A DNA stretch of 64,000 bases from Amoebophrya sp. A120 (Eukaryota > Protista > Dinoflagellata), in contig CAJINV010000011.1 of NCBI GenBank assembly GCA_905178155.1, positions 72,154 through 136,153 of the forward strand, in the 5' to 3' direction. Below the pieces are notes generated by a model. The model was not told where the DNA came from, searched no databases, and saw only the letters and a list, made by a program, of their open reading frames with translations. The position numbers and the translations under genes are program-made. Positions 735 to 64,000 of this stretch are shown one piece after another (within the stretch, counting starts at the first letter, position 1; every line of letters begins with the position of its first letter).

Positions 735-3700
735 TCATGAATAGGTCTTGCGTAGGTGCGGTACCACGTCAGGGAAGACGTTCGGAGAAATCTCAATCAT
801 CGGTGCAGCAGCTGCGTCGGTGCTGTACTGGAAAGGAGAGAAAAGTAGTTCGCGGTTGCTGTACTTGCCGAGAGGCGGATCCTCATCTTCTTCTTTACCT
901 CCGCCACCACCACAGTCTCCGCACTGCCCCGCCGTCGAACAACCGGCATATTTGTCAACATCTTGCGCTTGAGTCGACATTTTCTGTTCCTGCGAAGATG
1001 TTGTCGCCGCGAAGAAAAGCATGTTCTGCACACGAACACCCGTAGATGATACGGCGTTTATTAATGCGTTGTAACACCCCAGCACTAAGTACGCGTCTAG
1101 TGCCGCGTAGCGCTGGTAAAGCTCGGGCAAAGGGCGTGGTAGAAAGGCCCAAGGACTGCACTCCAGTTGCCTGTTCAGCTGGAACCCTTTGTAAACAACT
1201 TCACACAGCTCGGTCATGGAGGTCCAGCACGACGCGGAGTGGTCCTCTTCCTTCGTGGTGGGTGTGAACATCTTCAAAGCGGGCTCTTCATTTGGTTGGG
1301 TGGAGGAAGCGAACTCGAGCTTTTGGGTGCTGGCACTGGGGACGCAAAATTTTTTTGCGTTTGTGCTGCAATCCGAGTAGTCCGATTCGGCATCACCTGG
1401 GTTGTAGTTCTGGGGCGCCGGGACGGTTTGCAAATTGATCAACTCCGCAAGGTATGGATTGCAAATACGTCTGGGTCTGGAAGATTGCAACTCGTCATGC
1501 TAAATCTGAAGCATGCAGAAAGAGAAATCTGTGTTGCATGAGTGCCAAAAGCTGTCCACTTTCGATCAAGTTGGAAGAAAATTTCTGCCGCAGGATGCTT
1601 AGGCATGGCAGAGAACAACTCACAGAGTCTGTCATGCTCGGTCCCGCATTTGAGACCTCATAGCTCATGAAAACCCTGCATGACAAGTTTACATTCTTCC
1701 AGGCATCCCGGGATTGTATTTGGATTTGATACAAGGTGGTAGGACTTGGATTTCTTCGTTTTGCGGCTCTTGTTCTCCAGTTCATCACCTGGTGTCAAAT
1801 TCCGTCGCAGACCACCTCCGACCGGGTTTATTTTTCCTGCTTCATCTCTACAACTCAATTCTACTTGTTCTTCAGCATCTCCACCATGATGATCATCCAC
1901 GGAAAGACCCAGCCTGGAAAACTCCTCCGTTCCGAAGGCCACAATTTTCTCGGCATACTTTTCCGAAATACTGCGCACCAAATCCAGGGCGTAGTTGCTG
2001 AAGGCGCGGTCGAGGCGGCGAGCCTGTTATGCATGTGGAAATATGTCTGGGTCTGGAAGATTTTAACTTGTGATGCTGTCTTCGGATTCGAAAAAAATCT
2101 GTATTGCATGACCAGCAAGGGGAGTTGTCCAGTTTTTTCTACACGAAAAGGGCATTTTTGACGCAGAATTGGCATCAAGCGAAGTCCTCTAAAAATCTGT
2201 GGCGCTAGGCCATGCGTTACAGGCATCACGGGTCATGCAAAATATGCATGACAAATCTGGCATCAATCTTCCAGACCCAGATTGATATTTGCAGTTGATA
2301 CCTGTTCTTTGTAATCAATTACTGTTTCGCCCGGCTCTTTCGCGGTCACATAACAGCTTCTCGTAAGGTACCGGGCCCTCAGTGGAACAAGGTCGATTAA
2401 AAACACCTTCTCGGCCACCGCAAGGAGGACCAAAGAGCCGGCGGGAAGATGGTGCTCGCAATCGTGTCTGTGGTCGTCGGGCGGGGGGGCAGAGGTTGTT
2501 GTACTTGCGCCCCCTTTACCGGAGGTCCTCGCAGCCTGAGAGGAGCAGGAACTACAAGGAGAAAAACCCACCTGTTCATTACTGCATTCGGAAAACTTCT
2601 GCCACTTACACTTCAGACCGAACGTGTAACGTTGACCTTCTTGCAGGTGCTTGTCCACGTCCTGCAGGCCAAACACCGGGATGACCGGGACTTCGGGCGG
2701 TAGTATCCAATGCAAATTTGTCTGGGTTTGGACGGATGCAACGTGTCATGCTGCATCTGCTTTCTCCAAAAACCTGTATTGCCGGAACAGCAAAAGAGGT
2801 CCAGTTTTGGCCACGGCGAGAGGGCATTTCTCATGCGGTATAGGCATTGGGAAGCCCACCTCACAGAATCTGTGATGCTAGGGCATGCATCACAGACATC
2901 AAAAGTCATGCAAAATGTGCATGACAAACCTTGCATCCTTCCAGACCCAGACATATTTGCATTTGGTAGGTAGTCGCAAAAACCTACTGGTCGCAGGCGG
3001 GAGTGGCCCTCGTCCCGGCCATTCGGCGCTCTGCGTTTCCAGAGGACCCACTTCCGCTGCTTCGGTACATGTAGTTGTACGGGTGGAACAAGATCTCGAG
3101 ATGAGAGGATGCGCGCAGCCGCAGTCTTCTTGTTCTTCGTCGGAAATAAATGAAGTGGTTGTACCGGAAAAACGTTGAAAAGTGCTTTCCAGCTGCTCTT
3201 GCTCGCCCGAGATGTTGCTCTGTAGCCCCGAGCTGGTCCTCTGTACTCCCCGCGACGGAAAGTGGTTGGTTCTGTGGCTGCAATTCCAATTCTTCTCTTC
3301 ACCATGCGAAGGCGCCAACTCTTGCTCTTCACGGGTGAGCGCCAATTCAGCGTCTGCAAACGCCTTCTGTAGTCTTTCGCGCTCTACTTGCAGGAAAAAT
3401 TCAGCTCCACCTGATTTTGACAATTGGTCTCTTTCGCACGATGTACGTGCACTGGGACGACTCGTGGTCCAACTAAATGATAAAACATGGATGATGGTCA
3501 GAACGGTATACTAGATTGTGATGTGAAGAAAGCGAGAAAGAAATGAATTTAGATTTACTCACCGTGACGTGAAAAGGAAAAAGCTTTCGCCTTCTGTCGT
3601 CTTTTCTGTTCTTTCAGGAAATATCAAATGCAACCATGTCTGGGTCTGGAAAAATACCACAGTATCTGCTCAAGCAGTTTTTCCAAGCTGTGAGGAAGTA

Positions 3701-5587
3701 GCTCCGTTATGCAACACAGATTCAGGTAGTACTTGCGTTAGCCGCAAACCACGCATAACAAGTTTATGCTTTTTTCCCGACTGCGACATTATGTTTGCAG
3801 AATGCATAGGAAAACCTGTTCCCGCAGTTGTTCGAAGTCGCAGAGAAACTCGTGGTATCCTGTGCAAAAGTATCGCACTCGTACAAATGCATTACAAATT
3901 TCCTCAGCATGAAAAATAAAATTTGTAATGCTGATTTACCTTGAAAAAAAGATTTGTAATGCATGATTGCAATACAAGTGCAATACTTTTGCACAGGATA
4001 AGTGGGAAAAAGTGTTGTACAAAAAGGCCTCGCTGAGTTCGTCGGCCGCGCACTGTCTGCGTAGTTCCTGATCAAGTTGATATTGGTTCGACGCAGCTCC
4101 GAGTAATAAATCCTCGTCATGATGAAGAAGATGTTGCTCTTCATCCAGCACCGTAACAAGTGCAACACCATGATCGCGTTCATCATTTCCCCGCGTCGCT
4201 CTTGTCGTAGAGGGAGCAACCGTGCGAGGACTACTACCAAGTGGACTGGTGGAACGAAATTCCGATTCATCATGCTCCTGCTCCGTTTCAACATCTTGCA
4301 TTAGACACAGCTGCTGCGCCGCTTGCTGAAGTTCCTCACGGACTAAATCCAAGAGCTCCAGTGCCCGCTTGGCCGGCAGACGCAAAACCGCCTCTTCCCA
4401 CGCGGTCGCCAGGTCAGACAGCAGAAACTGATCGTCTTGCGAGACCATCTGCGACAAAACGTGGGGAAGAGGGTAGATCTTGAGCATGACCAAGGCCACG
4501 GCGACACTCGCATTCCGGTCCACCGCTTCCGTCAACTGCTCGATCCAGTAAGCGTAGTCTACGTCGTTGCGTCGAATGATCGCGTCGATGATCGTGTACT
4601 CGTTTTTCAACCGGTTGTCGTGGTGCTTCTCCGCACTACCGCCCATAAATTCCTCCGCAAAGGGGCTTAGTGCTTGGTAGGCCTCGGCGAGCAAGGAAGC
4701 GTCCAATTTGCAGTCTTTCTCCTCGGGAATTTCGACCAACGCGTGCCGAATCCAGGAGACGCAGGTGGGAATTTCATTTTTTGCGTGTGATTTGCTGCAG
4801 TCTACTGGTGTGCTGTGGTGGTCGTGGTGGTGCGCCGGGTCGTCGTGGTGCAGTATTGTCTTTTGTCGGTCCTCGCACTGGAGGTGTGGTGCTGCTGGTG
4901 TGGTTTTTTCACGCTGGTGTGGACCAACGACGAAGCTTGTAGAATCTTCCCCGCTGATCATGCGAGTCGCAGTTTCGGCAAGCGGTGCGCTGCCGCGCGA
5001 CGTGCGAAGTTCTTTCGGTACTACAGTTTGTTCTGGCGTTCTTGCGACTACGTTGTTCTTCTCACCAGCAGCAGCCTGCTGTGGCGCATCAGCAGGAGCT
5101 ATAGCTGCGCCAGTTATTATTTCTTGTGTGAAAAAGATTCCAGTTTCACCGAAAAAAGAGAAAGAAGAAGAAGATTCGAAAATTTCAAATTTTTGAATTT
5201 GTAGTCGCGGTTGATCACGTGATTATTGTTTATTGTTTGTTCTACAGAAGTTCTTTCTCTTCTAATTTCAAAATAGTCTTAAGTACCTGTCGTGCCGGCG
5301 CTCTTGGTAACATTCTGCCGAAATTCGTGAAGCGCGTGGTACCAACGGACTCGTAAGGAGGAACTAGTAATCGTGTCGGAAAGACGAGGCTGCTTCGAAG
5401 TGGACGCTGAGCCCCCAGATAGCGCCTCCTCCTGCTCCTTCATTTCACTCTCACATGTTTGTTCACCTCCAACCGCCAATTGCCAAATTTGCCGCAGCCG
5501 AAAATTGCACTTTCCATGTGGCGTGGCCCTTTCGGCAAGAATTCTCGGGCAAATCATTGCGGGCCGTTTCTTGTTCGTTTTTACCAC
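735..5587 (-). CDS. Multi-exon hypothetical protein (5 introner introns plus 2 probable GT-AG introns at 3411-3562 and 5123-5286)
   Basis: ORFs 5279-5587, 3936-4961, 2899-3423, 2263-2715, 1658-1981 and 735-1490 join in frame after excision (SYHL|AELINL, DYKEQ|ARRLD, FLRLP|PEVP, FSH|EFLCD). No recognisable domain; 5' end uncertain. Confidence 0.65.
1453..1731. mobile_element. Introner, family A
   Basis: Left end TATGGATTGCAAATACGTCTGGGTCTGGAAG; right end ...TTTGGATTTGATA; direct repeat CAAGG/CAAGG; frame restored. Confidence 0.9.
2028..2300. mobile_element. Introner, family A (readable as GT-AG)
   Basis: Inverted repeats with GTCTGGGTCTGGAAG core; direct repeat CCTGT/CCTGT; frame restored. 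Confidence 0.9.
2704..2968. mobile_element. Introner, family A
   Basis: TATCCAATGCAAA...TTTGCATTTGGTA; direct repeat GGTAG/GGTAG; no GT-AG register possible. Confidence 0.9.
3622..3808. mobile_element. Introner, family A (short, degenerate right end)
   Basis: TATCAAATGCAACCATGTCTGGGTCTGG...TTTGCAGAATGCATA; direct repeat GGAAA/GGAAA. Confidence 0.8.
3856..4000. mobile_element. Introner, family B
   Basis: TATCCTGTGCAAAAGTATCGCAC...GTGCAATACTTTTGCACAGGATA; direct repeat CGTGG/AGTGG. Confidence 0.9.
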
Positions 5588-7534: not shown

Positions 7535-7667
7535 CAGTTCGAAATTCTTTCTCGGTGTGAAATTTTTGTGTGCTTATCAGTTCGAAATTTTTTCTCGGTG
7601 TGAATGTTTCGTGTGCTTATCGGTTCGAAATTCTTTCTCGGTGTGACATTTTCGTATGCTTATCAGT
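7535..7667. repeat. Intergenic tandem repeat, 43 bp x 3
   Basis: Unit CAGTTCGAAATTCTTTCTCGGTGTGAAATTTTTGTGTGCTTAT at 7535, 7578 and 7621, with a few substitutions and no spacers. Confidence 0.9.
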
Positions 7668-8062
7668 GGTAATCTCTAATGTGTTTTGTACGTCGTACGA
7701 CGAAAGGAAATAAATGTTGGAAATAATACAAGACTCTAAAGGGTGAGTTTTTTTATTGCTTGCGAAGTCTAAAGTTTCTACAAGAAGATGTCCTTTTTCC
7801 GTCTCTGTTGCTGGAGGTAGGACGAGCTTGGGAAAGCTATTGCTTTTTCAGCCTGAGGGAAAATAAAACGCTAAACGAAAGTTGAAAGTTCTACTGGTCC
7901 TGCCGTCTTACTGCGAAGTGCTTTATTCCCGTAGAGTTCCTTGCTCTTTCGTGGTACGATTACGAGAAACTATAGAGAAACTATAGAAGTTTTTCAACAT
8001 CGAGCACACTCATCTGCGACCCGAAATATCACAGAAGTAGCAACTTGTACATTTTTTCAAAG

Positions 8063-11000
8063 TCATTTTTGCCACGACCAAGCTGGTAGGTTTAAAATCG
8101 CCTCGTGCATGTTGCGCAATCCATCCAGCAGGTAGTCGCGTTGCATCTTTTCGCCTCGGTGCATCTCGAAGTGTTTCTGTGCCTCCTCGATGGTCTTGAA
8201 GTGCCCGTACCGGAGGAGATACGCGATCACAAAAAAACCAGTGCGGTTCACGCCATGTGTGCAGTGGATCGCGATCTTCTTGTCGGGATACCGTGTCACA
8301 TAGTCACGCAGATGAATTGCAAAAGTATCGCACTCGTAGTAATTGCAGTCACGCATAATTTTTACAAATCTTTTCCTTAAGGTAAATCCGCATACACAAA
8401 CTTTATTTTTCAAAATGAGCAAATTTGCAATGCATTTGTATGAGTGCGATACTTTTGCAATCCATAATGCATCCACCAGGTGACGTCGTCTACGTCTCCG
8501 AGCGTTGGCACTGGCTATGCTGAGGAAAAATCTCCCCCACACATCAAAAAGGCAATTTTTGATGCTGATAGTCTTGCGCACAAGGCAAACGGCACCCATG
8601 TGGCGCATTGCGCAGCCAGTCTGTCGCGTGCTTTCGCCTATATCAGACCTGTTTCACATGCGCAGCTGCTAGCCGGATGCGTACCAAAATGAGCTTCGAA
8701 TATGCCGGCAAGATCTTGATCTTGCTGCAAATACAATACAAATTTCATTTGTGCACACAAATCCAGCAACACAAATCGTCTTTTGAGAATGGGGTGGGGG
8801 CTTTTTTCACTTTGATACTTTCCGTCCTGCCACCTTCTTCTGCCACACATATATGGAGTCGAAGCCTTCCAGATCTTTTATTTCTTCCTCCCAAGAGCAG
8901 TACCTGCAGTAGAGTTTGTCCAAGTCGGATGAGTGGATACTTATCGCAACGGCGAAAGTCATAGCCTTGTTTTTCATCGTAGCTGACAACCTGCTCGAAA
9001 AAACGAGAAACGCAAATAAAGGAATAAAGGAGCACGAATAATAATACTTGTCTGTGTTCGTCAGGTTCACGATAAGCGAGACCTCGTTCGGCCGCTCCCT
9101 CAGGAAATCTGCGCAACCGAACCGCTCCGCTTCGGGAATAGCCCAGTCCCACTTCCAAGAGCAGGGAGTTTTGAGCGGTATGATTTTATCTATCACGGGG
9201 TCGCCAAACTTCGTGCACTCGAGCCACTTCTGCACCCATTCTGGTTTATTCCGCGTGCCGTAATTGGTATTGCCCTGATATCCATGTTGATTTTGATTTC
9301 CGCCCCCAGCCCACGACGTTCTCACCTCGTATGCATATGCAAATGTGCTGTCTGGGTCTGAAGGATTGCAACTCGTAGAGCTGGTGCGTTTGCAGCATTT
9401 AGACGCAATAAATCTGTCGTTCACAGTCAGAACAAAGCCTACGGTTTTCGTTTCCCGCAAAGTTAACCATTTCCCATGCAGGGTGTACATGGAGAGGCCT
9501 CTACTGCGGGTCTTGTCATGCTCTGCGTCCAAAAATTAAAATTCACACGGGCTTGCCCAGGTCCACAGAACACATGACAAGTGTCTGCAGTCTCCCAGAC
9601 CCAGACGAATCTACATTTGGTACCTCGTTTCCCCGTGCGGAAGATGCAGATGATTTCAACCGGTTTCCTTGCTGCGTGGACGTTCCTATCCTAAGTAAAA
9701 ACGTCCCCACCCTAGAGTTGTCATGCAGATTAGCAAGCACAGGAGCATTTGTGAATTGTGACGCGCATTCCCAAGAGAGGCAATTCCAGTCGTGCTCTGG
9801 AACTTGTAATGCTGTAAACAGGATGAGCAGATGGATTTGTTATGCGGATTCCCTTGCTAAACTGAATTACACTACAGCCTGCAACTTGTCATGCGCGAAC
9901 CACAAATCTTCCAGCTTTGTGTTGCAAAATCTCCATCTTGACTCTGCGGCGGGGACGTCTTTCCTGAGAATAGTTCCATGCTCCGCATTGTCGTGATAGT
10001 CGTTGCGAGCTTGCTGCTCCGTCGTTCCAGCAGCTGGTTGTTGATGTGTTACAATAGAATTGACGTGTGCCCAGCAACATAAAAAGCGGCGCAAATTATT
10101 CATCTGTTGTCAATAGTGTCTAGAGTATCACACTGAGGACGCATAATGTCCGCGGAACATTTCTGCAGAAAAAAGCTGCATAGTAGGCACCTTTTCCGTT
10201 CTTATTATCGACGTCTGCAGCCGCTGTAGGTGCCGGACGAGCGCGATTCAGCGCCTCGCTACCAGTCGCGCGCCCCCGGTCGGTGCCTTGCCTCCGGCTG
10301 CGGCTTCGATGAGAATCGCCGTGGAGGATTCTGTTCGCAGGCACTGGCGGAAAATTCCGGGTCCGGGGAACCTCTGGCGCAGAACGTGGAGCACCCGGCG
10401 CAGCTTTTGCCCCCGGGGCGGCTGCATTTGCCGATCCAGGTCGTTCTTGCTCAACTGCTCCATGGTTCTTGCCCGCGGTCGAAGATGACGCAGAACAAGA
10501 ATGCAGCACTCCCGGCGTCGTGCCCGCCGACGGGCCCGGTGGCTTTGATGCGCAGCTAGCAGGTTGATCAGGAGCTGCACTTCCCGCGCTGCCCGACGAA
10601 CCCGCGTGCGCCCCTTTTGTACATGGAATTGCATGACAGATAAAAAAGGTCAGGTTGCTTACGTTTTTCTTGTGTCTCTGCCACATTTTCTGGGCGGTGT
10701 GCATTCATAAGGATACCATTGTTATGCATCGTGTGTGCTGGAACTGAAAAATGAAAAGAATTCACCGTAAACGAAGTGAAAGTTGTAGTACCATTTTTTT
10801 CTCTCATACCCTCCTTCCCGGCCGTGGTTTTTGGCACAGCACTTGGCAGTTGACCTTTCCGCCCGTGGTTTTTGGCACAGCCCTTGGCAGTTGCAGCTTG
10901 TTCTTGTCCGCCCGCACGCAGTAATTCGCCACCGACCACTGCAGAAGAGCTGGTAGAAGTTGTACCTTGCACCGGCATATCAAATGCAAAAATGTCTGGG

Positions 11001-14000
11001 TCTGGAAACTTGTGATGCTAAAAGTGAATGGTAGACGGACTGCAATACGCAGCTGTGCATGACAAATTTTTTGGCTCCCATGTCTTACGTATTCCGCGTG
11101 ACAAACTGCGTTTTTGCATGACAGGTAAGAAAGCCTTTTCGTGCCTATGCATGACAGATTCGCGAGTTATGCCAGACAAGCATGACAGACTTGCATTCTT
11201 CCAGACCCAGACACTTTTACAATTGATACGGCAAGGGTCCACGGCCTGGCGGCTTGGCGACCGCAGCAGAAGTGCTCCTCCTGCCGGTTGTAACGGTTTC
11301 ATCCCACGACTCGCCTTCGTCTGCCTTTTGATACTTCTTGGGCTGGTATCAAAGGTGCACAAGAGCTACTCTCCGTTCCCCTCATCATGTGATGTCATGC
11401 AAAATATCAAATCCACTTCTTGCGCTACTTAGGGACTGGTAGCATGACAAGTTCTCTGTTCCTCGAGTACTAGGAATTCCTCGAGTACTAGAGAAAAAAA
11501 CAGTACTAGAATTGTTATCCTTCTTGTTCGGATTTTACATGCGGGAGATGACCCACTTCTGTGCCACTAAAACTTGTCGTGGGGCTTCTAAATAAATATG
11601 CGTTTGTTCAAATGAAGTTGATGGGGGGCGTTGAGCACAACTACAACTCTGACTCTCGTAGCTGGTCGCCGTGCCGTTTGCTCGCGCTCCTCGGGCGTTT
11701 GTTGGTGTGTTCCTTTACCTTGCTGGAGTACCGCGACGGGCCTGGGCCGCCCAGAATGTCGCGCGAGGAGCGGTCGTTCTTGGCGCGAGGAGAACTTGTT
11801 TCACCTCGTTCATCTCCCCACGGAGACACCGGTCTTTTCGGATTCTTGGCGAGGCCGTCATTGTGGTTTTTAGCAACTTCATTGCCTCCGCCCACAGAAG
11901 TAGTGTTGCAGTTCGTCTCGAAAGAAGTTGTGTCCTTCTGTTTGCTCTGGCCTCCACCTCTCGGTTTATTATTGTCCTTCACCTTGCTTTGCCCACCTCT
12001 CGGTTCCCGGGGCAGGCTACGTTGCTTCACCTTACTTTGCTTGCCACCATCTTCGCGAACGTTATTCGAAGTGCTGTCGACGCGCTCCTTGCTACTTCGG
12101 CCGCCACGGAGATGTACGGGTGTGGTCTTCTTATCTTTCACTTTGCTCTCGCCCCGTCCATTTGGTCGGTTTATCACGGCAGGTATGGAGTGCAAACGCA
12201 TCGCTCTAGCAGTAAGTAATTATTGCTCAGCATGAGTAGAAATGGAATTTGTAATGCGGATTTCCCTTGAAAAAAAAATAGCAATGCATGACTGCAATAA
12301 CAACTGAGAGCGCGATACTTTTGCACAGGATAGAAGGAGGTCGGTTTATCTTGGCGACCGCAGCAGAAGTGCTCCTCCCGCCGGTTGTACAGCTACGCTG
12401 CTGCTGCAGTTGCATATGCATTGCAAATATGTCTCGGTCTGGAAGAGTGCAACTTGTCATGCTGCATCTGGATCAGGGAAAAATTTGTCTTGCATATATT
12501 ACCAAAAGATGCCCACTGTTGAACAAGTTTAGAGGCAGTTTCTCATGCAGCAAAGGCATGATAGAGATCTCACATAACCTGTCATGCTAGGCCGCGCATG
12601 CCAAACCGTGCGCGTCATGGAAAACCTGCATGACAAGCCTAGCAATCTTCCAGACCCAGACATATTTGCAATGCATAGTGCACCAGCAAAGGTCCACGGC
12701 CTGGCGACTTGGCGACCGCAGCAGAAGTGCTCCTCTCGCCGGTTTTACAGCTAGGCTACTTATCAAATGTAAAAATGTCTGGGTGTGGAAGATTGCCAGG
12801 TTTGTCATGCATATTTCTCATGATCCATGATGCCTGTAATGCATGACCTAGCATTACAGACTTTTAGAGGGCTTCCTGATGCACCTTTCGCATGAGAAGT
12901 GCGCTGTCCGGCAAGCACAAACCGGACCCCTCGTTCTGGTCATACAATACAATTTTTTTTAGTGTCCAAATTCAGCATGACAAGTTGCGCTCTTCCAGAC
13001 CCAGACATTTTTAGATTTTGCATTTGATACTGCTCCTGCAGTTGCTTGCCCCGGGGGGCCCTGCTTGCGCCCCGCTCCGGTTCTGTTGAATGAAATGATT
13101 TCTTATTATCTTTATTGTTTTCCGCGACTCTATCCATCTTTGTCTCCGCGTCTGCAGCAGGACTTGTTCCCATTTCCTTGCATACAACACATGAGTGACA
13201 TGCTCTACATCTTTATATCCTTATAAGAAACGGCGATAAAAATCTTCAGGAGGGCGATCTAGATAATCTTCATTAGCAGAATAGGACCTTCGTATACCTT
13301 TCTTTTCCCCCGTCGCTGCAGTACCATCAGCAGTCGTTCCCAGAGCAGCAGCAGGACCATCGCGCGCTGCCGTAATCTTGGCCACAATGTCGGCACTTGG
13401 GAAATCAGACATTTGTTTCAGCAGGCCTGGCCCTCGTTGGTCCGAGCTACAACTCACAGATTGCGTCCGACGAGTTGGGGCACCTTCTGCCAGGGTCTAT
13501 CCTGTATCGAAACGTCCCCACACCAGAGTCAAGATGGGAAATCTGCTAGACAAATCAGCCAGCATTGGCTGCTTCGCGTGACAAGTTCTTTGTCCTCGCA
13601 GTGTAATCCTGTAGTTTAGCTACTTCATCAGCATCACAGATCTAGCATATCAAGCTGATCTTAGCATCAAAAATTCCAAAACACAACCAAAAAATGCTTT
13701 TCATGGGGCTCCGCATCAGAAACTTTTTTGGCATGCAAATTGGCATGACAACTATCGGGTGGGTACGTTTTTGCTCAGGGTAGGACGCCCTCGTTGCTCG
13801 TCGTTATTTTTTGTCGTAGTTGATGTGCTCCAGCTCTTTCGCCGAATGAAGAGGATGGGCCAGAAGCGGCACTCGTACGACCTCTGCGAGGCGCGATGGC
13901 GCTTCCAAGGTTCACTTGCTTCTTGTTCGCAGATGAAGATGTAGAAAGTGCAGCGGAAGATGCACACACGGACGAACTACTCCCCGATGGGATAGGAGCC

Positions 14001-14890
14001 ACTGCTCCTGTAGAAAGTGGCGGATCCAGTGCTGCTGCTTCTTGCGCTGGTTCTTTCAGCGGTGCCTTGGTTTGTTGATGACTCGCCGACTGTTTCATAT
14101 TTCCTGATACTGCTCTATGCTGCTGGTCTTGCTTTTGGTCTTCCCCAGCGTCATCTGTGATCTTAATTGCTCTACTTACCGACGCGGTACGGTTGATCTT
14201 GGTAGCATTGGCCGGCATGGGAGGCAGGTCCTGTTTGCAGACGCACCCTGATGTGGTTCCTCGGGCCCGCGACTTACTCAGACCGGGCGCGGGGCAGCGC
14301 CTCACACTACGAATACGATACGTCTCCTCCTGCTTCTTGCCGTTAAAGGTTCTTTGGTCGGGGACTGGCGGCGCAAAATGACCGCCCAAAGATGAAGATA
14401 TAGCCGCGTCGTGACTCTTGTTGTCTTTACTGCCACGACCTCCTGTTGCGCTCCTACCTCTACTTCTGCTCCGGAGCCGAGGTGGAGACACAGCAAGGCT
14501 GGGCTGCCCGACATGCTGCACCACCGCAGAACGAGCAGAAGGGTCCACCAAATTCGATTCTTCCTTGTTGTTTTGCTTGCTAGTGGTGGAGGCCGCTGCT
14601 GGTGCACGACTGCAACTCGTGGCGTTGCGAAAAACGCTGGGCCTTTGCTTTTTTGATCGTGGAGGCATTGGCGACTCCTCCTTTTTTTTTTCCTTCTTCA
14701 TGGTCCTCTTCTTCCTTCTAATTGGAGCTTCGTTTTCATCCGGGCCGAGGACAGCTGTCTCCCACTCGTCAGAGGACGACTTCTCGCTTATTACAATGAA
14801 AAATGTCACCATCCCAGAAATTGGCACCGTTTGTATTGCAAACCCTATTTTTTCCATTGATTGGGAGCATTCCCCGTCTACTTCTTGCAT
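8063..14890 (-). CDS. RNA 5'-triphosphatase of the cysteine-phosphatase family (DUSP11/PIR1 or capping-enzyme type) with long low-complexity N-terminal region
   Basis: Spliced C-terminal domain reads KIIPLKTP...LIVNLTNTDKY...VAGRKVPTLGDVDDVTWWMRDYVTRYPDKKIAIHCTHGVNRTGFFVIAYL...AQKHFEMHRG, with the HCTHGxNRTG P-loop. Upstream exons join in frame across introners; a few ordinary introns are unresolved and the 5' end is uncertain. Confidence 0.8.
8311..8466. mobile_element. Introner, family B
   Basis: TTGCAAAAGTATCGCACTC...GAGTGCGATACTTTTGCAATCCATA; direct repeat ACGCA/ATGCA; restores phosphatase frame. Confidence 0.85.
8516..8817. mobile_element. Introner, family C (degenerate)
   Basis: TATGCTGAGGAAAAATCTCCCCCAC...GTGGGGGCTTTTTTCACTTTGATA; direct repeat CTGGC/CTTTC; frame restored. 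Confidence 0.75.
9330..9622. mobile_element. Introner, family A (readable as GT-AG)
   Basis: TGTCTGGGTCTG core at both ends; direct repeat CCTCG/CCTCG. Confidence 0.9.
9687..9972. mobile_element. Introner, family C
   Basis: TATCCTAAGTAAAAACGTCCCC...GGGGACGTCTTTCCTGAGAATA; direct repeat GTTCC/GTTCC. Confidence 0.9.
10978..11228. mobile_element. Introner, family A
   Basis: TATCAAATGCAAAAATGTCTGGGTCTGGAA...TTCCAGACCCAGACACTTTTACAATTGATA; direct repeat CGGCA/CGGCA. Confidence 0.92.
11347..11660. mobile_element. Degenerate introner
   Basis: TA...TA ends; direct repeat GCTGG/GCTGG; frame restored (GDQ|PKKY); inverted repeats eroded. Confidence 0.65.
11700..12160 (-). repeat. Coding peptide repeat (GGxSKVK-like, about 5 copies)
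   Basis: GESKVKD, KQSKVKQ, GQSKVKD, GQSKQKD and YSSKVKE in ORF 11641-12201. Confidence 0.65.
12184..12332. mobile_element. Introner, family B
   Basis: TATGGAGTGCAAACGCATCGC...GCGATACTTTTGCACAGGATA; direct repeat GCAGG/GAAGG. Confidence 0.85.
12415..12677. mobile_element. Introner, family A
   Basis: Near-perfect TATGCATTGCAAATATGTCT inverted repeat; direct repeat TTGCA/GTGCA. Confidence 0.92.
12761..13029. mobile_element. Introner, family A
   Basis: TATCAAATG...CATTTGATA; direct repeat CTACT/CTGCT. Confidence 0.9.
13498..13782. mobile_element. Introner, family C (readable as GT-AG)
   Basis: TATCCTGTATCGAAACGTCCCCAC...GTGGGTACGTTTTTGCTCAGGGTA; direct repeats diverged; frame restored. Confidence 0.8.
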
Positions 14891-15136
14891 ATCTACTCAG
14901 CATCACACATGATAATTTTCATGCTGAATATTAGCTCAAGTTTGTGTTGCAATGGAGCCCAGCAGCAGCCGGATCTGTATATACAAAAAGGATACCTTCT
15001 TGCGCACCTACATTTTTCTACATCAGAAAGACGCGTAGCTCTTTCATGCAAAACAAAAAGTTTTCATCCGGATGAAACCTTGCATCAGGAGAAACTTTTG
15101 AGAATTTTGGGGGTGGGGGCACTTTTCATTCTAATA
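14890..15136. mobile_element. Degenerate family C-like element
   Basis: Right end GGGGTGGGGGCACTTTTCATTCTAATA resembles that of 8516-8817; direct repeat TTGCA/TTGCT; frame joining unresolved. Confidence 0.55.
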
Positions 15137-21100: not shown

Positions 21101-21520
21101 AGGGCGGTATGTCTTTTGTAAGCGATATGCATTGCAAATTTTTCTGGTTCTGGAAGAATCCAAATTTTCTACGCTACAACGATCGGCCAGCATGACTGTC
21201 AAGTCTGTCATGCACGTGACCGAAGCACCTCGTTTTTCTGTCAACATGCAGAAACGCAGTTTGCTATGCAGAATTATAGGGCTTACCGATCAGCTAGAAA
21301 ATTCGCCATGCACATGCTCGGCCCTCAATTGTTGATATGTCCTCATGATTTTCCTAAGTACCTGCATCACAAGTTAATTCCAGACCCAAAACTATTTGCA
21401 GTGGATAACATGGCAGGTCCTGCCATCTCCTGTGTGGATAAACAGCAGGCGATCGTGTTTATCGGGAACCCACGACATCTTGAGGATGCGGTTATTTCTA
21501 GTTGCCGGCTCAATCCAGTT
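15085..21520 (-). CDS. Divergent partial clathrin heavy chain-like protein (leg/CHCR repeats) with an internal repeat duplication and low-complexity tail
   Basis: Spliced peptides YDPVAKRDKFLKE, PVEPIVAEYKSRNRLLPLQQWLE, VIGKYCEKKDKPHLAYICY, VNEPVVWSKLGKAYL, AIDSYIKANDASDYMEVI, LVTFLKMARK and IGDRLYDEGNYKAAKLLF match clathrin heavy chain leg repeats. Nine introners restore frame; both gene ends are uncertain. Confidence 0.8.
17275..17535. mobile_element. Introner, family A
   Basis: Family A ends; direct repeat GTGCT/GTGTT; restores SGTNT|ANCQM. Confidence 0.9.
17608..17781. mobile_element. Introner, family B
   Basis: TATGCACTGCAACAGTAGCG...CGGTACTTTTGCAATGCATA; direct repeat GTTCC/GTTCC; restores DSEL|VYSY. 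Confidence 0.9.
17948..18066. mobile_element. Degenerate introner-derived GT-AG intron
   Basis: TA...TA ends; direct repeat CCTGA/CCTGA; internal GCATGACAAA; restores YLESG|IVAEA. Confidence 0.7.
18145..18320. mobile_element. Introner, family A (internal-deletion derivative)
   Basis: Direct repeat CCCGT/CCCGT; body matches the right two-thirds of 2704-2968. Confidence 0.9.
18378..18630. mobile_element. Introner, family A
   Basis: Direct repeat CATCT/CATCT; restores KAEM|HPEAM. Confidence 0.92.
18906..19158. mobile_element. Introner, family A (inverted near-copy of 18378-18630)
   Basis: Direct repeat GGTCA/GGTCA; reverse complement aligns along its full length to 18378-18630. Confidence 0.92.
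19240..19449. mobile_element. Introner, family D
   Basis: TATGCAAGAAAAAAACTACGTGAGTGTAA...TTACACTTACACAGTTTTTTTCCTGGATA; direct repeat ACGGT/ACGGT. Confidence 0.85.
20092..20371. mobile_element. Introner, family A
   Basis: Direct repeat CAAAC/CAATC; restores PVEPI|VAEYK. Confidence 0.88.
21126..21407. mobile_element. Introner, family A
   Basis: TATGCATTGCAAA...TTTGCAGTGGATA; direct repeats diverged, but 5-nt-offset removal keeps frame. Confidence 0.8.
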
Positions 21521-52405: not shown

Positions 52406-55400
52406 TTATAATCTTCGTGTTGGAGCTCGTCCAGTTGCATTATGCATTGCAAATATATTATAATCTGGGTCTGGAAGTAGACTGTTGCATTTATTATGCA
52501 TGTGGTCTGACTCTGACATGACGCGAGAGTCTGTCTCTGTCATGCATGGGCACGAAAATGCCCTCCGACCTGTCATGCAAAAACGCAGTTTCCTACCTCT
52601 ATGCGAACTACGCAACACATAGCAGCTCAAAAATTGGCCATGCTTAGCTGCGCAATGCAGTGCGGCTATCATTCACTCTGAGCATTACGAACAGTTTGTC
52701 ACTCTGACAATTCGAAAAAGTCGTATTTACGGTCCGTGGGTATTGAGGTCGCCGTTCCTCTAGCCTTGCTTGTAAGTTGCCGCGGTGCTGTCGCTTCTTT
52801 GTAGTCTGCTCTAAACCAGTCCCTGTCGTAGTGTGGGCTAATCCGGGGTCTAGTCGCATGTCCGTCGGGGCCACGGCGGACCTTGGTCTGCAGACCGCTC
52901 CTTCCGGAAGAAGAAGCTGGGCTCAGGCCAGGTTCTGGACAGGGTTCGCGCTGCTCGCTTCTGCTCGGGGCTATCCGTGATTGCCCGCTCGGGGCTATCA
53001 AATGCAAATATGTCCGGGTTCTCTGGATGAACGCAGATGATCGTCATGCTGTTTTCGTCTGACCAAGAAGGTATGCGTATGGTATGCCAGCCCTCACATC
53101 ACAGGTTTTGAGGAGGTGTCTTGTCAATGCCACCTGAAGATCCGCAGGGCAAATCATCACTTTCGGTGATAAGAAAACGGGCAACTTTTGTTGTCCATGC
53201 ATGTTGGCAATTATTTTTTTATTCATCTGAAATGCGCACCAGAACCAGATGCAGATATATTTGCCACGCATAGAGGCTTGGCCACTTATTGCCGTGGAGG
53301 AAGCTCCGGATGATCTGTGCGCCCTGTGGATTGGACGATGATCGTCTGGGTCGCCAAAACCGAAAAGGTCCTTGAGCTTTTTCGTTTTCACTGCTTCGGG
53401 ATCCGCCCTCTTGGCGCCATTGAGCAGCACCCGCAGGGCCGTCTCGAACAAAATTTTCTTTCGCAGCTCGAGTCGAAACAGCCGTTCTTGCAGAACCTGT
53501 TCGAGGAGCGGGAGAAGTAATACCCGGACAAAGTAGCGCGCGGGCCCGTGGCGAGGGTCCTTTTCATCCTGTCGAGGGGCGGGCACCTGCAAAAATTTGT
53601 GCTCTGGTCCCATGCGGCTTCGCGCGGGCATGACGAACTGTACGAAGTCCTTGCGCTTCTCGACTTCTTCGAACATGGCGTCGACGATGCTAGGAAGCTT
53701 GCTCTTCTCCTCTTGTTCCCACTCAGCCGTTCCGGGGACAAATCGTTCCTCCAGGTAGAAGTTCGACTTTTGCCAAGCATTCACGTTCGTCCTCACCTCC
53801 AGCTCCCCGCGGAGCTCGTCATCCATTCTATTAAGCGGCGACACGGCGGCGTTGGCGTAGATTACATCTAGCTCAAGCAAGGCCAATAAAAATTCGTCCC
53901 CTCTACTAGGGGTCCTTTGCCTGCTTCCCCTCCGTATGCATTGCTAAAGCACCGCACTAGTATAAATCGCATGACAGATAATTTTCTCAGCACGAGCCAT
54001 AAAGTTTGTATTTTGGTAGATGTTCCTAGAGAAAGGGATTTGCACTGCATGACTTCGATCAGTACGAGTACGATACTTTCGCAAAATCATACTGCTTCTA
54101 AGAGAAGATGAAACCATATATTCACCTGCTTCTGTCAATTGCAAACGTGTCTGAGTCTGGAAGTAGAGTTGCGTCTTGTGATGCAAAAGTCGGATCACGC
54201 AAAAATTTTTGTTGCATGAACTCCAAAAGCTACCCATACCTTGCTACGCAAAAAGGGAAGCTAAGAGGCGGCACAGGCATCAAGTTCAAGACACCTGCGC
54301 AAAACCTGTACCACTTTTGCGTGCATATAGCATTCCAGATCATCTGCGTGGTCCGCGAGATGCATGACAAACTTCCAGACCCAGACATATCTGCCTTCGA
54401 TAGCGTCCCGGACCCATTGACTTATTCCTTCACGGATTTGGTCTCGTTTTGCACCGCGCAGAAAGCCATGGAAGGAGCTCCCTGGTTGACGATCGGCCGA
54501 CTGTAGTCTCTGTGGCCTTGGGAGGAAGGCGGCCAGCAACCAATCCCGCATTTTTTCCTCGCTGCTCCTCGCCAGCGCTGTCAAGAAGTCCTGGGCCCAA
54601 GCCGCGTATGCAGCGTTACCAAATTCAGCGACAAAAAGGGACATGAAGCGGTCCCCCAAATCTGCGATAATCTCGTCCCGACTAGCGTCCTGGTTGTGGT
54701 CGGCAGCAAGCAGCTTCGCGTCCGTGCGGTACCGGCTGATCGGATCTTCGGTTTTCTTCTTGCCATCTTTGTCCACGGTGACGGCAATGGCATCAGGAAG
54801 AGGAGTACCAGTTGGATAAGACTCGCGCAGTTTTGACTCGAAAGCCTGGACGTGTTTCTCGCGCTCCGCTTCTGTCCAGGACGGACGCAACATTCGCTGG
54901 ACGCGGATCGCGCAACCGTACTTGTTCAAAAAAATGCTCAAGCTCTCTTCCGACGGAGCAAACAACCAGTGCGTAGTCAACTCGTAAAAGCTTGTCGGTT
55001 TATCGGGGTCATCTTGTTCCACACCAAAGTAATCTTCTCCGCCGTGCAAGTGTAGCCTCTCTGCGCGCTCCCGCGTCAAGTCAACGTCTCGATTGTTGTT
55101 CGTGTAGCTCAACATGAAGTCGTACTCAGGCTGGAAGAGTACAGGCGTCAAGTGTTCGGTGTACCGTTGTACATCCTGTGTGTAAGCGTAGTTGATGCGG
55201 GGCATGCTGTCCGTCCCGCCAGAAGGCGAACTCTCCTCCTCCGGCTCGTAAGGCCCGGGCAGCATCTTCCTCTCACTTTCGCGCCACAGCGTCTTCATCG
55301 AATCCAGAAAGTACTTCCTCTTGCGCTCCCGCTCCAAAATTGATTGTGAACGCGAACTCTTCAAAAAATGCTCCCCGACGTCCGCAGACGGCTCGATCGT

Positions 55401-59730: not shown

Positions 59731-62700
59731 TCAAGTAACTCGACACTTCAACATCTTCTCTTTGTACTGATGGTTAGGAGGGGTCGTGTCTTTACACAAG
59801 ATACGCCAGTAGATCGACCTTCTCTGCAGCTCCAATGCAACCGCCGTCTCCAAATCGCGTCGCGGCGTAACGCCGTCATGCAGATTGAAACGTAGCACCC
59901 TACGGCACAGTATGCAGTGCAAACGTGTAGTTGTCCGGGTGTGGAAAAGTGCGAGGTGTGACGCGTGTTTTACAGTTCTGGAAAATATGCGTTGCATGAC
60001 CGACATCACAAGCGATAGTTGTTTTGTCATGCGAAAACGCAGCTTGTCATGCGTACTAGGGATGAGAAAGCGAAAGCGTTCTAAATCTGTCCTGCTTCTT
60101 GGCCGGAGGGCCTTTAGCAGTGCTGCACTCATCCATAAGTAGCCCAGCATCACAAGTTTCCAGAGCACCCAGACGTACTATATTTGCATTTGATATGCAG
60201 ACGATCCTCCGAGAGCGTCGGGTCCCAGAAGTCCTCGTGCGGAGCAGAGACGATCATGAGGTCGTACTATCGCGAGAAGAAAGTGTTTCGCTGATAACTC
60301 GCAATGCCGAATAAAATGTCTTGATACACATTTTCGTTCGTGTTGCTACACTTACAAGGCAGTGGATTTGCAGTTATGTCGTACCTTGTTTGGGACGAGC
60401 GCACGGCAAGTTTTCTTTGTTTATGTGTACTTAAAAGAGGACTTGTGATGCAGAGGGTCATAACAGTAATGTAACAAAACAATTTTCTCCTACGATACGT
60501 ACTGATTTGGGACAAACAGGTCGAGGAGGAAACGCGAAGCTTCGCGGGCTTTCTGCGGCACGTGGTCCGTCGTACTGCGCTGCTTGTCGCCCACCGCCCG
60601 CGGCTCGAGTCCTTCGAACATAGTCTCCAATTTCGCTGTCGCGATGCACACCGCTCTCCGATGGAAAAGTTCGGTCGCGCCTTCCAGAGCTGCAAGCTCG
60701 CACCCCTGACAGTGGATCTTCAAGTAGGTGAGCGCTTCCCCAGCGCCGGCAAAGGTACTAACGGCGGCGTCCGTTAGTGCGACAGGAGGCGCTGCCACTG
60801 CAGGGGCCGCGAGACTGCGTCCGGGACCCGTAAACCAATCCGACAAAGTAGTAGCGCGCACAACGTCGTAGTGGTCGCACTCCTGCGCGTCAGGCCGCAG
60901 GATGCAGGCGGAGGCGTCCTGAACTTTCTTTTGCCGCTTCGTGTGAAAGAACGAGTCCGAGGTCGCGTAGCTCTCCGCTGTGGAAAAGGGGTTCAGGTAG
61001 ATCGTGTGCAGGTCTTCCGCATCTGGAATGCGCATTTTCGGGATCTTCGGCGTCCTTGCGTCTACTTGTATTTCGGACGCACCCTCGGAAGTAGTTCCGG
61101 CTGTAGTTGTAACATCGCCGGTCGTTTCATCCGCCGTGCCGTCCTTCTGGTCTGGCTTCTTCGCAGTTCTTCGCGCAACCACCATTTTTTGCACCACGCG
61201 CACTCGTTTTTCCCAGCCGTTGGCCCTCACCGTGCGCTGGAAGGCGGCCACTGCGAGCTTGCTCGGCTCAAAAACCACGGCTTGCGCGTCGGGAAACTTG
61301 CGGAGCGCGTGTATGATGCAATCCCCTTGGTGCGCGCCAACCTCAACAAAGACGAAGGGAGAATCGCCACTCGCTCGCTCCTCCGACGCGGCGAGGTCTC
61401 GGTCCGGGAAGACCGGTGTAGCGTCGACAAGGCGGATGAACAGTCCATCCGTGCAGAACGGTCTTTGGCCACCATTCACGCGCACGTTGTTGCCAACAGA
61501 GTCGTAGAACGGCACCGTGAAAAACTGTGACAGGCCTCGCGCTCCGAGAAACAACGCACTGGCCGCAAGCCCCAGAGCGGAAAGCAGTGAAAGCACTGGA
61601 AAGGTCGGCCACTGCTTGTGTGCGTGAGGGGAACCAAAAAGCACCAGATCCGACAGAGGGTTGCTTGACGTCTCCAGGGCGCGCTCCAGAAAACTCTGCG
61701 CCTTCGCAATGTGCCGACGTGCGTCTTGCTGGACTTGTTTGCCACTTGCAACATCTACCGAAAGCAGGGTGGGGGCGTCGTGGGCAAGTAGGCTGTGTGC
61801 GGCTGCCAGATGTACTGTAGCCTGCCTGAAGCAGGCGACAAAGGTCTTCGTTGGGGCCGGCAAGTACTCGGTTGTACTCTCGTCCTGTTTTCGCGAATCT
61901 GCCTGCCATTCCCACATGATGGCTTTCTTGGTAAATTGGGAGATCGTGCTGTTGCCACCACCGAAAATGGACCGCAAAAAGTCCACATCACAGGTGTGCG
62001 GGGCAGCAAAGTCCAGAAAAATCTGCGCTGAAATGCGGTCGTTGCGGGTCAGCGCCCTGCTGATGTGACTGATCAGAGTCCGGTCCTGCCTTCTTTCCTT
62101 CTCCGAGACCCACTGGTGTATTCGGCAGACCGCGCAAGAGCTTCCGGGACCGAACCCAACAGTCTGCGGCTGCGAAGAGTGTAGTTGCTGCTGAGTGCGA
62201 AATATGCATTGCGAAACAAATGTCGCCTTCGCACAAGAACTAGTACCAAGTGCATAGCAGAACGAATAATCGAATTTGTCATGCATAGGAAGAAAAAAAA
62301 ACAGGTCTGTCATGCAAGAGCCGCATTTGATTTCGTACGAGTGCGATTGCGAGACTTGTTTTGCACACGATAGTACGAAGCGCGTTCCATTCGCTCGGCT
62401 TGATGCCACCAAACGGACCCCATCCGAACGCAGCCGGCTCCTTGCCCACCAGCACAGTATCGGACCACGTCTGTGCGAGCCCGTCGATGATGGAGAAGAG
62501 CTGCCATTGGCCGGCGAGAAGGAGGTCGTACAGGGTCAGAGACTTGCTGCGCCACAAGGCGGCGAAAATGACCTCCGTCACGCGCAAGTGGTAGTGCAGG
62601 TCGTGAAAATAGACGTCCAGTTCGCGAAACGAGGTCTTGCCCTGAAACCGGTGCACCCCCATTTGCAGCACCGTGCCCGATATGCATAATGCAAATATCC

Positions 62701-64000
62701 CTGGATCATGTCTGGAGATGATTTGTGACGCTGAACTGTGGATCATGAGGAGGACTCTTCCGAATGCAGCCAATGGCACGACAAGTTCGCAGAACGCTTT
62801 CTCAAACGCAATCCGCACTTTTCCATGACAAAAGAATCTACACTTCTTTATGAGACTTCACTGCGGTTTTTTATGACAAAAGAATCTGAGTGACTTCGTT
62901 TTGTTGGTCCCCCTGCAACACAGATTTCACAAGAATGGAAGCTCAGCATTACAAGCTCCACCTTTCCAGACCCAGATCGAGATTTGCATTTGGTACCCGA
63001 GGTAGCGGACGCCGCAAACTCACCGAGAATGCAGTGTCGTCGGTCCGACCGCTTCAGCACCTTGCCGGCAACCGACTTGTCTGCTGGTGTTGCAAAGAGC
63101 ACCTGCCGCTTCCAGAGCTTCCAAAAACGTTCCTCTTCGCTGCCGATTACCAGCCCGTGCTCGCAATTTAAGGCCTTCTGGACGAGCTCTTCTCGCCAGC
63201 GGTATTGTATGCCACAGAGAAATACTACTATTACACCATCAATTTGCACTACTACACCGTCAATTTGCTAGAAATAATGAACGGAATTTCTGCTGCTCTT
63301 TCGCTGTTACTAGGATTAGATCAGATATTTTGAGGTGTTCAGCATGACAAAGTTTTATATTATTTTGGTCCTTCGTAATCGTAAAAATCGATGAAGCCCG
63401 TTTGTTGCAAACAGCATTTTCCGTGACAGCAGACCGCGTCTTTGGCTATCTCCGCATCACTACAAAGGCTCTTACCGCACGACTATAGCAACACAAAGCT
63501 ACAAATATGTTTTTTTTCTGGTGCAAATTCTCGTGCAAATGACTTTTCTGTAGGATATATCTGTCGCAGCAAACTGCCGCCATCGATGAGCAGGCGGCGT
63601 AGAAGTCGCTCCGACCGTACAAACGAACCAGAGCATCGTGGTCGAGGCAGCATACCGGCCACTCCAGCGTCGTCGCGTTGTTTTGCCGCTTGTGCGGATA
63701 TCGACTAAAAATATGCCTGAGTGTGAGTGAAGCTTGTAATGCTAAAAGCGAATAAGAATGGTGAGCGCACTGCAATACGCAGCCAGGCATTACAAGACTT
63801 TCCGCTGCTATGTTTTGCGCCTTCCGCATGGCGTGACAAAGTGCGTTTTTGCATGATAGGTAAGAGGGCCGTCTCGGTCGTACCTAGACATCACAGATTG
63901 TCGATTCATATCAGACATGCATGGCGAATGCAACAATCTTCCAGGCCCAGACACATTTGCATTCGATAGCGGAGGTACGAGGCAGGCGTCGCCCGTCGAG
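59731..64000 (-). CDS. FkbM-family SAM-dependent methyltransferase, multi-exon, 5' end outside the window
   Basis: VFVEVGAHQGDC, VVFEPS, RTVRANGW and YLKIHCQGCELAALEGA motifs in ORF 60490-62412. Six introners restore frame (DRY|RWRE, TSG|TVLQ, ALR|TQQQ, NQY|DLMI, DRL|CRRV). Confidence 0.8.
59911..60195. mobile_element. Introner, family A
   Basis: TATGCAGTGCAAAC...ATTTGCATTTGATA; direct repeat CACAG/TGCAG; frame restored. Confidence 0.82.
60268..60497. mobile_element. Introner, family E
   Basis: TATCGCGAGAAGAAAGTGTTT...AAACAATTTTCTCCTACGATA; direct repeat CGTAC/CGTAC. Confidence 0.85.
62203..62375. mobile_element. Introner (degenerate)
   Basis: TATGCATTGCGAAACAAATGTCGC...GCGAGACTTGTTTTGCACACGATAGTA; direct repeat CGAAA/CGAAG; frame restored. 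Confidence 0.75.
62681..62995. mobile_element. Introner, family A
   Basis: TATGCATAATGCAAAT...ATTTGCATTTGGTA; direct repeat CCCGA/CCCGA. Confidence 0.88.
63208..63557. mobile_element. Introner (separate or degenerate family) containing a 20-bp tandem duplication
   Basis: TATGCCACAGAGAAAT...ACTTTTCTGTAGGATA; direct repeat TATTG/TATCT; frame restored. Confidence 0.7.
63699..63968. mobile_element. Introner, family A
   Basis: Right end TTCCAGGCCCAGACACATTTGCATTCGATA; direct repeat GCGGA/GCGGA. Confidence 0.85.

Follow-up and report, generated by a model that had tools for sequence, protein, structure and literature searches.

Introners in a 64-kb stretch of Amoebophrya sp. A120 are very probably cut from RNA at a fixed distance from their transposon-like ends

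A stretch of 64,000 nucleotides (nt) from the marine parasite Amoebophrya sp. A120 (the window; all element coordinates are positions in it) was analysed for introners, short inverted-repeat elements that interrupt its genes. At the RNA level, the intron very probably extends from 1 nt before the TAY start of the element to 4 nt after its RTA end (N-TAY ... RTA-NNNN, the -1/+4 cut). The elements are already published, and the cut rule is the part added here. The favoured reading, to which we give a probability of about 0.55, is that these A120 introners are likely DNA transposons and that an altered spliceosome, placed by the element ends, likely makes the fixed cut.

Removal from RNA, as the original prediction had proposed from the letters alone, was supported for 25 of 49 curated elements; RNA-like contigs account for 10 of these and two deposited proteins for the other 15. 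Contig-level data covered window positions 1300-20700, and junctions were taken from the edges of 24 of more than 21,000 pieces. Data sets X3 and X6 were called RNA-like by the tool's guess from their alignment pattern; X1 was DNA-like, with a flat depth of 24-34 and contigs holding the whole elements 9330, 14789 and 20092 without differences (records 4, 7 and 8). The X3 and X6 contigs skip elements: X6 record 20 joins 15137 to 14783, and X3 record 9 measures 100 nt versus 594 nt in the genome, the missing 494 nt being accounted for by an ordinary GT-AG intron (152 nt) and two elements, each taken with one of its repeats (192 and 150 nt). All nine contig edges beside elements lie where splicing predicts. 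The deposited proteins were built from transcript alignments in the Farhat pipeline (PMC7789003). None of the outcomes named in advance as contrary to splicing (retained elements, use of nearby GT-AG sites, untranscribed genes) occurred.

A 479-nt gap in X3 record 10 was set aside as junction evidence, because it allows 412 possible intron solutions. Part of it is 8942-9043, a TAT..ATA stretch with an exact repeat of 5 base pairs (bp) and no inverted repeat; on a hand check, taking it out with the usual cut seems to cause a frameshift. At 12761-12794, a few RNA reads of 2026 (run X9) hold the element end with a different flank; they may be unspliced or excised element RNA from a related strain. 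X9 contributed six reads in all and is uninformative about the junctions.

To locate the cut, 'position' was defined as the number of the five repeat bases that come from the upstream copy, position 4 being four upstream bases plus one downstream base. Where the two copies differ, the source copy of each message base can be identified, and these junctions are informative. Five informative contig edges allow positions 0-4, 4-5, 3-5, 4-5 and 2-5, which have position 4 alone in common. This position was set down before protein P0066 was retrieved; at position 4 there were 0 differences to P0066 over 1096 residues and 8 elements, compared with 6, 5, 5, 4 and 4 differences at positions 0, 1, 2, 3 and 5. 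For protein P0067, position 4 likewise gave 0 differences (897 residues, 7 elements), after two boundary corrections: the repeat-anchored boundary 62375 of element 62203 was dropped for the TAT end at 62372, which removes the mismatch, and element 59637 was added. In total, position 4 fits every one of the 16 informative junctions, while 9 of them rule out position 3 and 8 rule out position 5; four junctions (26228, 59637, 59911 and 62203) fix position 4 singly. At 59637, positions 0-2 look compatible merely through truncation at a stop, and the entry for 63699 was dropped from the position test as an edge artefact.

The cut is anchored on the element ends, and neither on dinucleotides nor on the repeat, since GT-AG lying off position was unused in two of two cases (13498 and 26228, both with GT-AG at position 1) and a repeat displaced by 3 nt was ignored in two of two (28550 and 62203), where the cut tracks the element end and an extra codon is left. 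The expectation that the element plus one repeat is excised thus held for the removal itself and has to be restated for its boundaries, which lie at -1/+4 from the ends. GT-AG is available in any exact-excision position in 6 of the 49 elements (2028, 9330, 13498, 17948, 26228 and 59637); the first five are exactly those counted by hand beforehand, among the 48 elements then known. At the position used, GT..AG ends occur in only 4/49, which is not what canonical U2 introns show, and 31 different end pairs are found. Twelve elements, including 2704 and 3622 as originally noticed, have no GT and no AG available, whatever the position. In Table S4 of Farhat 2021, the nine predominant non-canonical A120 motifs all have T at +2, as the -1/+4 rule requires; the text of that paper describes splice sites that are variable relative to the hairpin and without signature (PMC7789003). 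No statement of a fixed -1/+4 rule was found in the literature searched, the figures of Farhat and subscription papers being beyond its scope.

Elements were curated by scans for inverted ends starting with TA, by an end profile and by a choice of boundaries by eye. The first 48 came from the scans and the profile, and the 49th (59637) was recognised only after P0067 had been seen. The 49 elements, slightly more than the 44 or so first estimated, measure 119-350 bp (mean 243) and total 11,927 bp, or 18.6% of the window; element 22714 is counted but doubtful, and the one-ended candidates 52441 and 41037 were left out. Pairs that combine an exact 5-bp repeat with an inverted-repeat score of at least 9 numbered 13, versus an average of 0.15 in 20 block shuffles. 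Among 48 elements, the mean identity of the flanking repeats was 0.79 for a duplication of 5 bp and 0.17-0.30 for the other lengths from 2 to 9 (0.26 at 6 bp). The TA(T)..(A)TA ends and 5-bp direct repeats of the original prediction were therefore upheld as TAY..RTA and 5 bp, with repeats that are often imperfect (31/49): the copies match at 5/5 bases in 18 elements, 4/5 in 15, 3/5 in 10 and at most 2/5 in 6. In the sense of the transcript, 5' ends are TAT in 42 elements and TAC in 7, and 45/49 have ATA at the 3' end. Both ends consist of TAY, seven variable bases and AAA, with A at positions 11-13 in 35-44 of 48 elements at each end.

The G+C content is 0.44 in elements versus 0.56 in exons. 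Clustering at a bit score of 40 gave groups of 19, 7 and 4 members and 18 singletons; 18378 and 18906 are sisters, 89% identical, in opposite orientations within one gene. At element ends, 42-48 contigs of X1 carry other flanks, i.e. many further copies exist. The internal motif CAT(G/C/T)ACA is found on both strands, with 99 copies in the 11.8 kb of elements versus 15 in the 52 kb outside, and often lies ~40-55 nt from the element ends; these could be binding sites for a transposase or a splicing factor. An Rfam search returned 0 matches. By their terminal inverted repeats (TIRs), constant 5-bp duplication and short length, the elements are likely non-autonomous cut-and-paste DNA transposons resembling miniature inverted-repeat transposable elements (MITEs). 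This part of the original prediction stands on structure: no transposase or autonomous copy was found in the 64-kb window, where the elements were judged by frame length (longest Met-started frame, 86 codons) and not by Pfam scan, and no empty orthologous site was found, the 176 loci of a second assembly having no flanks in common with the window.

After exact removal, 60 or more open codons stood on each side of the junction for 39/48 elements, in line with the roughly 40 in-frame rejoinings first reported, versus only 14-17/48 when the cut was shifted by 1-2 nt. Retention would break the frame in 45/48. After removal, frames extend up to 2985 codons without stops. The long frames crossing elements are all on the minus strand, which fits the one-directional gene clusters described for A120 (Farhat 2021, PMC7789003). 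Conserved domains had been said to be rebuilt in three genes. This was confirmed for clathrin, where five junctions (17275-18378) align gap-free to the full A120 clathrin P0001, and for the phosphatase, whose exon matches the Pfam family DSPc (E 6e-11); the carrier domain gave no Pfam match on the two unjoined exons around 37090 (the joined sequence lay outside the scan). Thirteen of 21 exons have no Pfam family. A search of deposited proteins gave nothing for the phosphatase of the window, and the clathrin search did not return the window's own gene model. The exon 26518-28545, unbroken over 676 codons, matches P0066, a protein named Amoebophrya sp. A120, at 100% identity. As the DNA is that of A120 or a near-identical strain, the elements are, with near certainty to judge from sequence, the published introners, and the suspected link to these was borne out.

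The gene at 13224-21577 (minus strand) is like a clathrin heavy chain and distinct from the full clathrin. Besides a patch at ~17.2-18.4 kb that is nearly identical to P0001, it has a long tail of low complexity and is internally duplicated (16657/17158 and 16843/17780); it is possibly a chimeric or partly converted paralogue. A second, better-expressed clathrin is present in X6 at a depth of 69.

A pattern search gave 176 loci, all in JACKZZ01 contigs; they contain 293 distinct elements, whose identity to copies in the window reaches 92-95%. Repeats are perfect in 252/293, which suggests that JACKZZ01 is a close relative with recent insertions. Strand was assigned by a codon model for 170 of these elements and the other 123 were dropped; on the window, the model called 14/18, all correctly. 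Among the 170, related copies occur in both orientations (27:25, 14:12, 9:8 and 4:2), a balance that would call for a symmetric splicing signal and so implicates the ends. In 45/48 window elements the predicted fold contains 10 or more pairs between the two ends (26228 has a z of -4.6), yet 11347, 25843 and 63208 are removed despite weak end pairing (z above -2), so a pairing requirement remains putative. The proposal that paired ends are read rather than dinucleotides was thus sustained as to the dinucleotides, an off-position GT-AG being ignored; that it is pairing, and not end sequence, that is read stays putative, the three weakly paired elements being removed all the same.

Among known systems, the A120 introners of Farhat 2021 (PMC7789003) are the same object: 29,850 introns of ~240 nt with a hairpin and RNA-supported non-canonical junctions, whose inverted repeats are TAT, seven less-conserved nt and three As, with direct repeats of 3-5 nt. 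Organism, end motif, repeats, length, hairpin and non-canonical ends are shared, and the window elements agree with them in all features tested (end motif, boundary repeats split 4+1, RNA-supported ends, families, A120 host); the system is therefore already known. The difference lies in the sites, which the Farhat text calls variable and which here take the single position -1/+4. Other Amoebophrya strains use GT-AG (PMC12005148), and a term search of PMC13326754 gave no mention of Amoebophrya. The nonconventional introns of Euglena (Nomura 2025, PMC12501133; PMC11282704) likewise lack GT-AG and have paired end motifs, fixed cut spacing and a proposed MITE origin. Their motif is N3-CDG ... CHG-N5-6 followed by a purine, versus N1-TAY ... 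RTA-N4 here, where the exon starts with a purine in 26/48 (G 19, C 17, A 7, T 5); the window elements thus work like Euglena introns in their fixed-spacing cuts and lack the CDG/CHG and purine motif. The Euglena rule has been tested genetically and circles are reported (PMC12501133, PMC11282704), whereas the rule given here is known from sequence.

The introners of Gozashti 2022 (PMC9860276) and 2025 (PMC12130899) are TIR elements with splice sites partly inside the duplication that leave the message unchanged, as here; the examples given there depend on GY and AG being present within the duplication or element, whereas any 3' dinucleotide and any +1 base serve here. The non-canonical introns of Fritillaria borealis (via PMC11282704) are MITE-derived, with TIR and duplication, and an adapted spliceosome reportedly excises them; their ends are predominantly AG-AC and AG-AT, versus the many end pairs here. 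IS3EU/GingerRoot elements (PMC10045372, PMC12730594) share TA..TA termini (TAYGG..CCRTA in fungal families); membership was rejected on their 6-bp duplications, and the likeness is kept as a lead only.

The route would be as follows under the favoured reading. A transposase acting in trans would insert the element and duplicate 5 bp. The 4+1 split of the two repeat copies would then rebuild the original codons for any target and any orientation, and since the original five bases are restored, any insertion would be silent. The element would supply U at donor +2 and A at +3, the host repeat would supply +1, and paired or protein-bound ends may replace recognition by U1 and of AG, holding both sites at a fixed geometry. 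The spliceosome is the candidate catalyst by a modest balance of the evidence: TA falls on donor +2/+3, G+1 and AG show weak biases at this very position, and U2, U4, U5, U6 and all but 6 of 89 spliceosome proteins are reported in A120, where U1 was not detected (Farhat, PMC7789003). The G bias at +1 is seen in the window (21/48 versus a background of 0.30, p 0.035, uncorrected), and the AG bias at the 3' cut in JACKZZ01 (21/170 versus 0.072, p 0.012, uncorrected; counts at neighbouring positions 8, 10 and 11).

Several points weigh against this reading or narrow it. The spliceosome normally needs GT and AG, and a quarter of the elements (12/49) have neither in any position. Neither bias carries over to the other data set: G at +1 in JACKZZ01 is 59/170 (p 0.11) and AG at the 3' cut in the window is 5/48 (p 0.26). 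The RNA-derived check extends to 25/49 elements, the other 24 lying outside it; that X3 and X6 are RNA is a guess by the tool, and their contigs show presence and no proportion. As gene models from transcript alignments, the deposited proteins may share RNA data with the contigs, and P0067 was one residue off with the listed boundary 62375 until this was moved to 62372, with 59637 added after the protein had been seen. Farhat did not detect a transposase in A120 (PMC7789003). Two further patterns were set aside: a loss of end pairing in GT-AG elements (post hoc; window 4/4, p 0.001) was 0/7 and 0/6 in JACKZZ01, in sets that favour intact copies, and a branch-point A at -7, suggested by TAC at 5' ends only (window 7:0), was not replicated in JACKZZ01 (4:1 and 2:1; pooled asymmetry 11:1, p 0.006, post hoc).

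A less probable though serious alternative keeps the same elements and the fixed cut and assigns them to a separate, non-spliceosomal system that measures from paired ends, as proposed for Euglena. It could consist of a nuclease together with a ligase, or be another machine dedicated to the task, and the intron would be released in circular or linear form. The diversity of end pairs, the elements with neither GT nor AG, the neglect of off-position GT-AG, the use of both orientations and the end pairing of 45/48 predicted folds would all suit it, as would the precedent of Euglena, whose cuts lie at a constant distance from paired motifs and for which circular products are reported (PMC12501133, PMC11282704). 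Against it, the invariant U +2 and A +3 fall where a normal donor has these bases, the weak biases to G+1 and to AG (each in a single data set) lie at exactly this position, some weakly paired elements are still removed, and no such machine was identified in the literature covered. In its strongest form, similarly tentative, A120 would have a second splicing code, N/UAY ... RUA-NNNN/, read by a dedicated machine that uses neither U1 nor GT-AG and measures from transposon ends; each insertion, in either orientation and at any target, would then be a perfect intron, and Euglena-like structure-guided splicing would have arisen independently in an alveolate.

It is unlikely that the cut, though usually at -1/+4, varies between elements or families and that the agreement of the sample is fortuitous. 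Farhat describes sites whose place varies with respect to the hairpin, with inverted repeats 1-5 nt from them (PMC7789003), and 21 of 58 A120 family rows in Gozashti 2025, most of them TIR DNA of unknown family, list mixed splice sites, with repeat lengths of 2-5 where given (PMC12130899); only 4/16 junctions fix the position singly. Nevertheless all 16 fit, across several families, and 7 were predicted beforehand (chance with random positions ~0.001, by hand arithmetic). Perfect repeats would let aligners set the boundary arbitrarily, which may account for the apparent variability.

Ciliate-type DNA-eliminated sequences are absent from expressed DNA, are bounded by TA and leave one TA behind. 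Excision of the elements from DNA in some cells or stages in this manner, with transcripts that never contain them, has very little probability. The TA..TA ends recall it, and RNA contigs alone cannot separate RNA splicing from DNA excision; however, the flat-depth X1 contigs hold whole elements, X3 record 9 lacks the ordinary intron as well as the elements, neither TA is left behind, and relative to the direction of the transcript the cut is asymmetric, as an orientation-blind DNA cut would not be. Lastly, dead, transposon-riddled genes with open frames as a by-product of exact duplication are the least credible alternative, refuted for genes with RNA-derived evidence: removing the element plus one repeat does restore the original sequence by construction, and many exons lack a Pfam family, but RNA-like contigs skip elements, deposited proteins match exactly and 2985-codon frames have no stops.

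The -1/+4 rule is worth following because it makes the mechanism of splicing directly testable. For the 29,850 A120 introns, it turns 'no signature' into a single statement. It defines the true first and last intron base, so that the junction of a lariat or circle follows exactly from it and can be looked for in RNA data already available, and it is usable by gene finders in this lineage. Insertion that is harmless at any target and in any orientation would allow genome-wide spread. If the spliceosome is responsible, it splices without G+1 or AG at scale; otherwise there is a second nuclear splicing system.

Table 1. Elements and internal control in the window. End pair, intron ends at the -1/+4 cut; repeat, matching bases of the two repeat copies; pos, allowed positions.
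Feature	Coordinates	Strand	End pair	Repeat	Evidence
Element	1453..1731	-	GT..TT	5/5	Repeat, frame, pairing analyses
Element	2028..2300	-	GT..AG	5/5	RNA-like contig edge 2301
Element	2704..2968	-	CT..AC	5/5	Contig edges 2698 and 2969
Ordinary GT-AG intron, same gene (non-element internal control)	3411..3562	-			X3 record 9: 494 = 152 + 192 + 150
Element	3622..3808	-	CT..TC	5/5	X3 record 9 length arithmetic
Element	3856..4000	-	TT..AC	4/5	RNA pos 0-4; pos 5 gives stop
Element, phosphatase gene	8311..8466	-	TT..CG		RNA pos 4-5; X3 record 10 and X6 record 18 end 8305
Element	8516..8817	-	GT..CA	3/5	Repeat, frame
Element	9330..9622	-	GT..AG	5/5	Repeat, frame; held by X1 record 4 (DNA-like)
Element	9687..9972	-	CT..AA	5/5	Repeat, frame
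Element	10978..11228	-	GT..CC	5/5	48 X1 contigs with other flanks
Element, weak end pairing	11347..11660	-	CT..AG	5/5	X3 and X6 contigs start 11661
Element	12184..12332	-	CT..TG	4/5	Repeat, frame
Element	12415..12677	-	CT..CA	4/5	Repeat, frame
Element	12761..13029	-	GT..TA	4/5	Pos 0-2 give stop
Element	13498..13782	-	CT..CC		GT-AG at pos 1 unused; RNA pos 3-5; X6 record 20 starts 13782
Element	14789..15136	-	AT..CG		RNA pos 4-5; X6 record 20 joins 15137-14783; X1 record 7 holds element
Element, clathrin-like gene	17275..17535	-	CT..CA		Gap-free P0001 and P0003 match needs pos of at least 2
Element	17608..17781	-	CT..AA	5/5	Gap-free junction versus P0001
Short decayed element	17948..18066	-	GT..AG		End pairing not above chance; P0001 alignment
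Element	18145..18320	-	GT..GG	5/5	P0001 alignment
Element	18378..18630	-	GT..AT		89% identical to 18906, inverted; P0001 alignment
Element, inverted sister of 18378	18906..19158	-	CT..AC		Frame
Element	19240..19449	-	TT..CG	5/5	X3 record 14 starts 19450
Element	20092..20371	-	GT..TT		RNA pos 2-5; held by DNA-like contig
Element, repeat nearly lost	21126..21407	-	TT..GC	1/5	Repeat, frame
Doubtful old element	22714..22923	-	CT..AC		No long frame across
Element	24232..24440	-	AT..GA		P0066 pos 0-4
Element	24489..24647	-	GT..GT		P0066 pos 4-5
Element	24981..25192	-	TT..AT		P0066 pos 4-5
Element	25246..25449	-	GT..AT		P0066 pos 4-5
Element	25504..25790	-	CT..TC	5/5	P0066
Element, weak end pairing	25843..26120	-	GT..TG		P0066 pos 1-4
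Element	26228..26515	-	TT..TT		P0066 pos 4 only; GT-AG at pos 1 unused
Element	28550..28816	-	GT..GC		Best repeat 3 nt off (28542-28546); P0066 full length pos 3-4
Element	31431..31670	-	AT..CA	3/5	Repeat, frame
Element	36147..36451	-	GT..CT	2/5	Joins 2985-codon frame
Element	37090..37289	-	TT..AC	4/5	Frame
Old element	42016..42269	-	GT..CT	3/5	Repeat, frame
Element	48575..48824	-	GT..CA	4/5	Repeat, frame
Element	52996..53272	-	CT..CC	4/5	Repeat, frame
Element	53935..54091	-	GT..GA	3/5	Repeat, frame
Element	54133..54402	-	CT..AG	4/5	Repeat, frame
Element, recognised after P0067	59637..59803	-	GT..AG		Full-length match pos 4 only
Element	59911..60195	-	AT..GT		P0067 pos 4 only
Element	60268..60497	-	GT..AC	5/5	P0067
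Element	62203..62372	-	CT..TC		Best repeat 3 nt off (62376-62380); P0067 pos 4 only
Element	62681..62995	-	GT..GG	5/5	P0067
Element, weak end pairing	63208..63557	-	AT..AT		P0067 pos 2-5
Element	63699..63968	-	CT..CG	5/5	P0067

The one-ended candidate 52441-52742 has a clear end at 52441, an interior matching copies of the second assembly and a decayed other end; 52742 is a possible partner end, with its repeat displaced by 1 nt. The other one-ended candidate, 41037-41330, lies between two long frames of an AMP-binding-like gene, which has weak Pfam matches under the cut-off at 42.3-44.1 kb and continues into the 2985-codon frame. An intergenic array at 7537-7667 consists of three tandem 43-bp units that are 89-93% alike.

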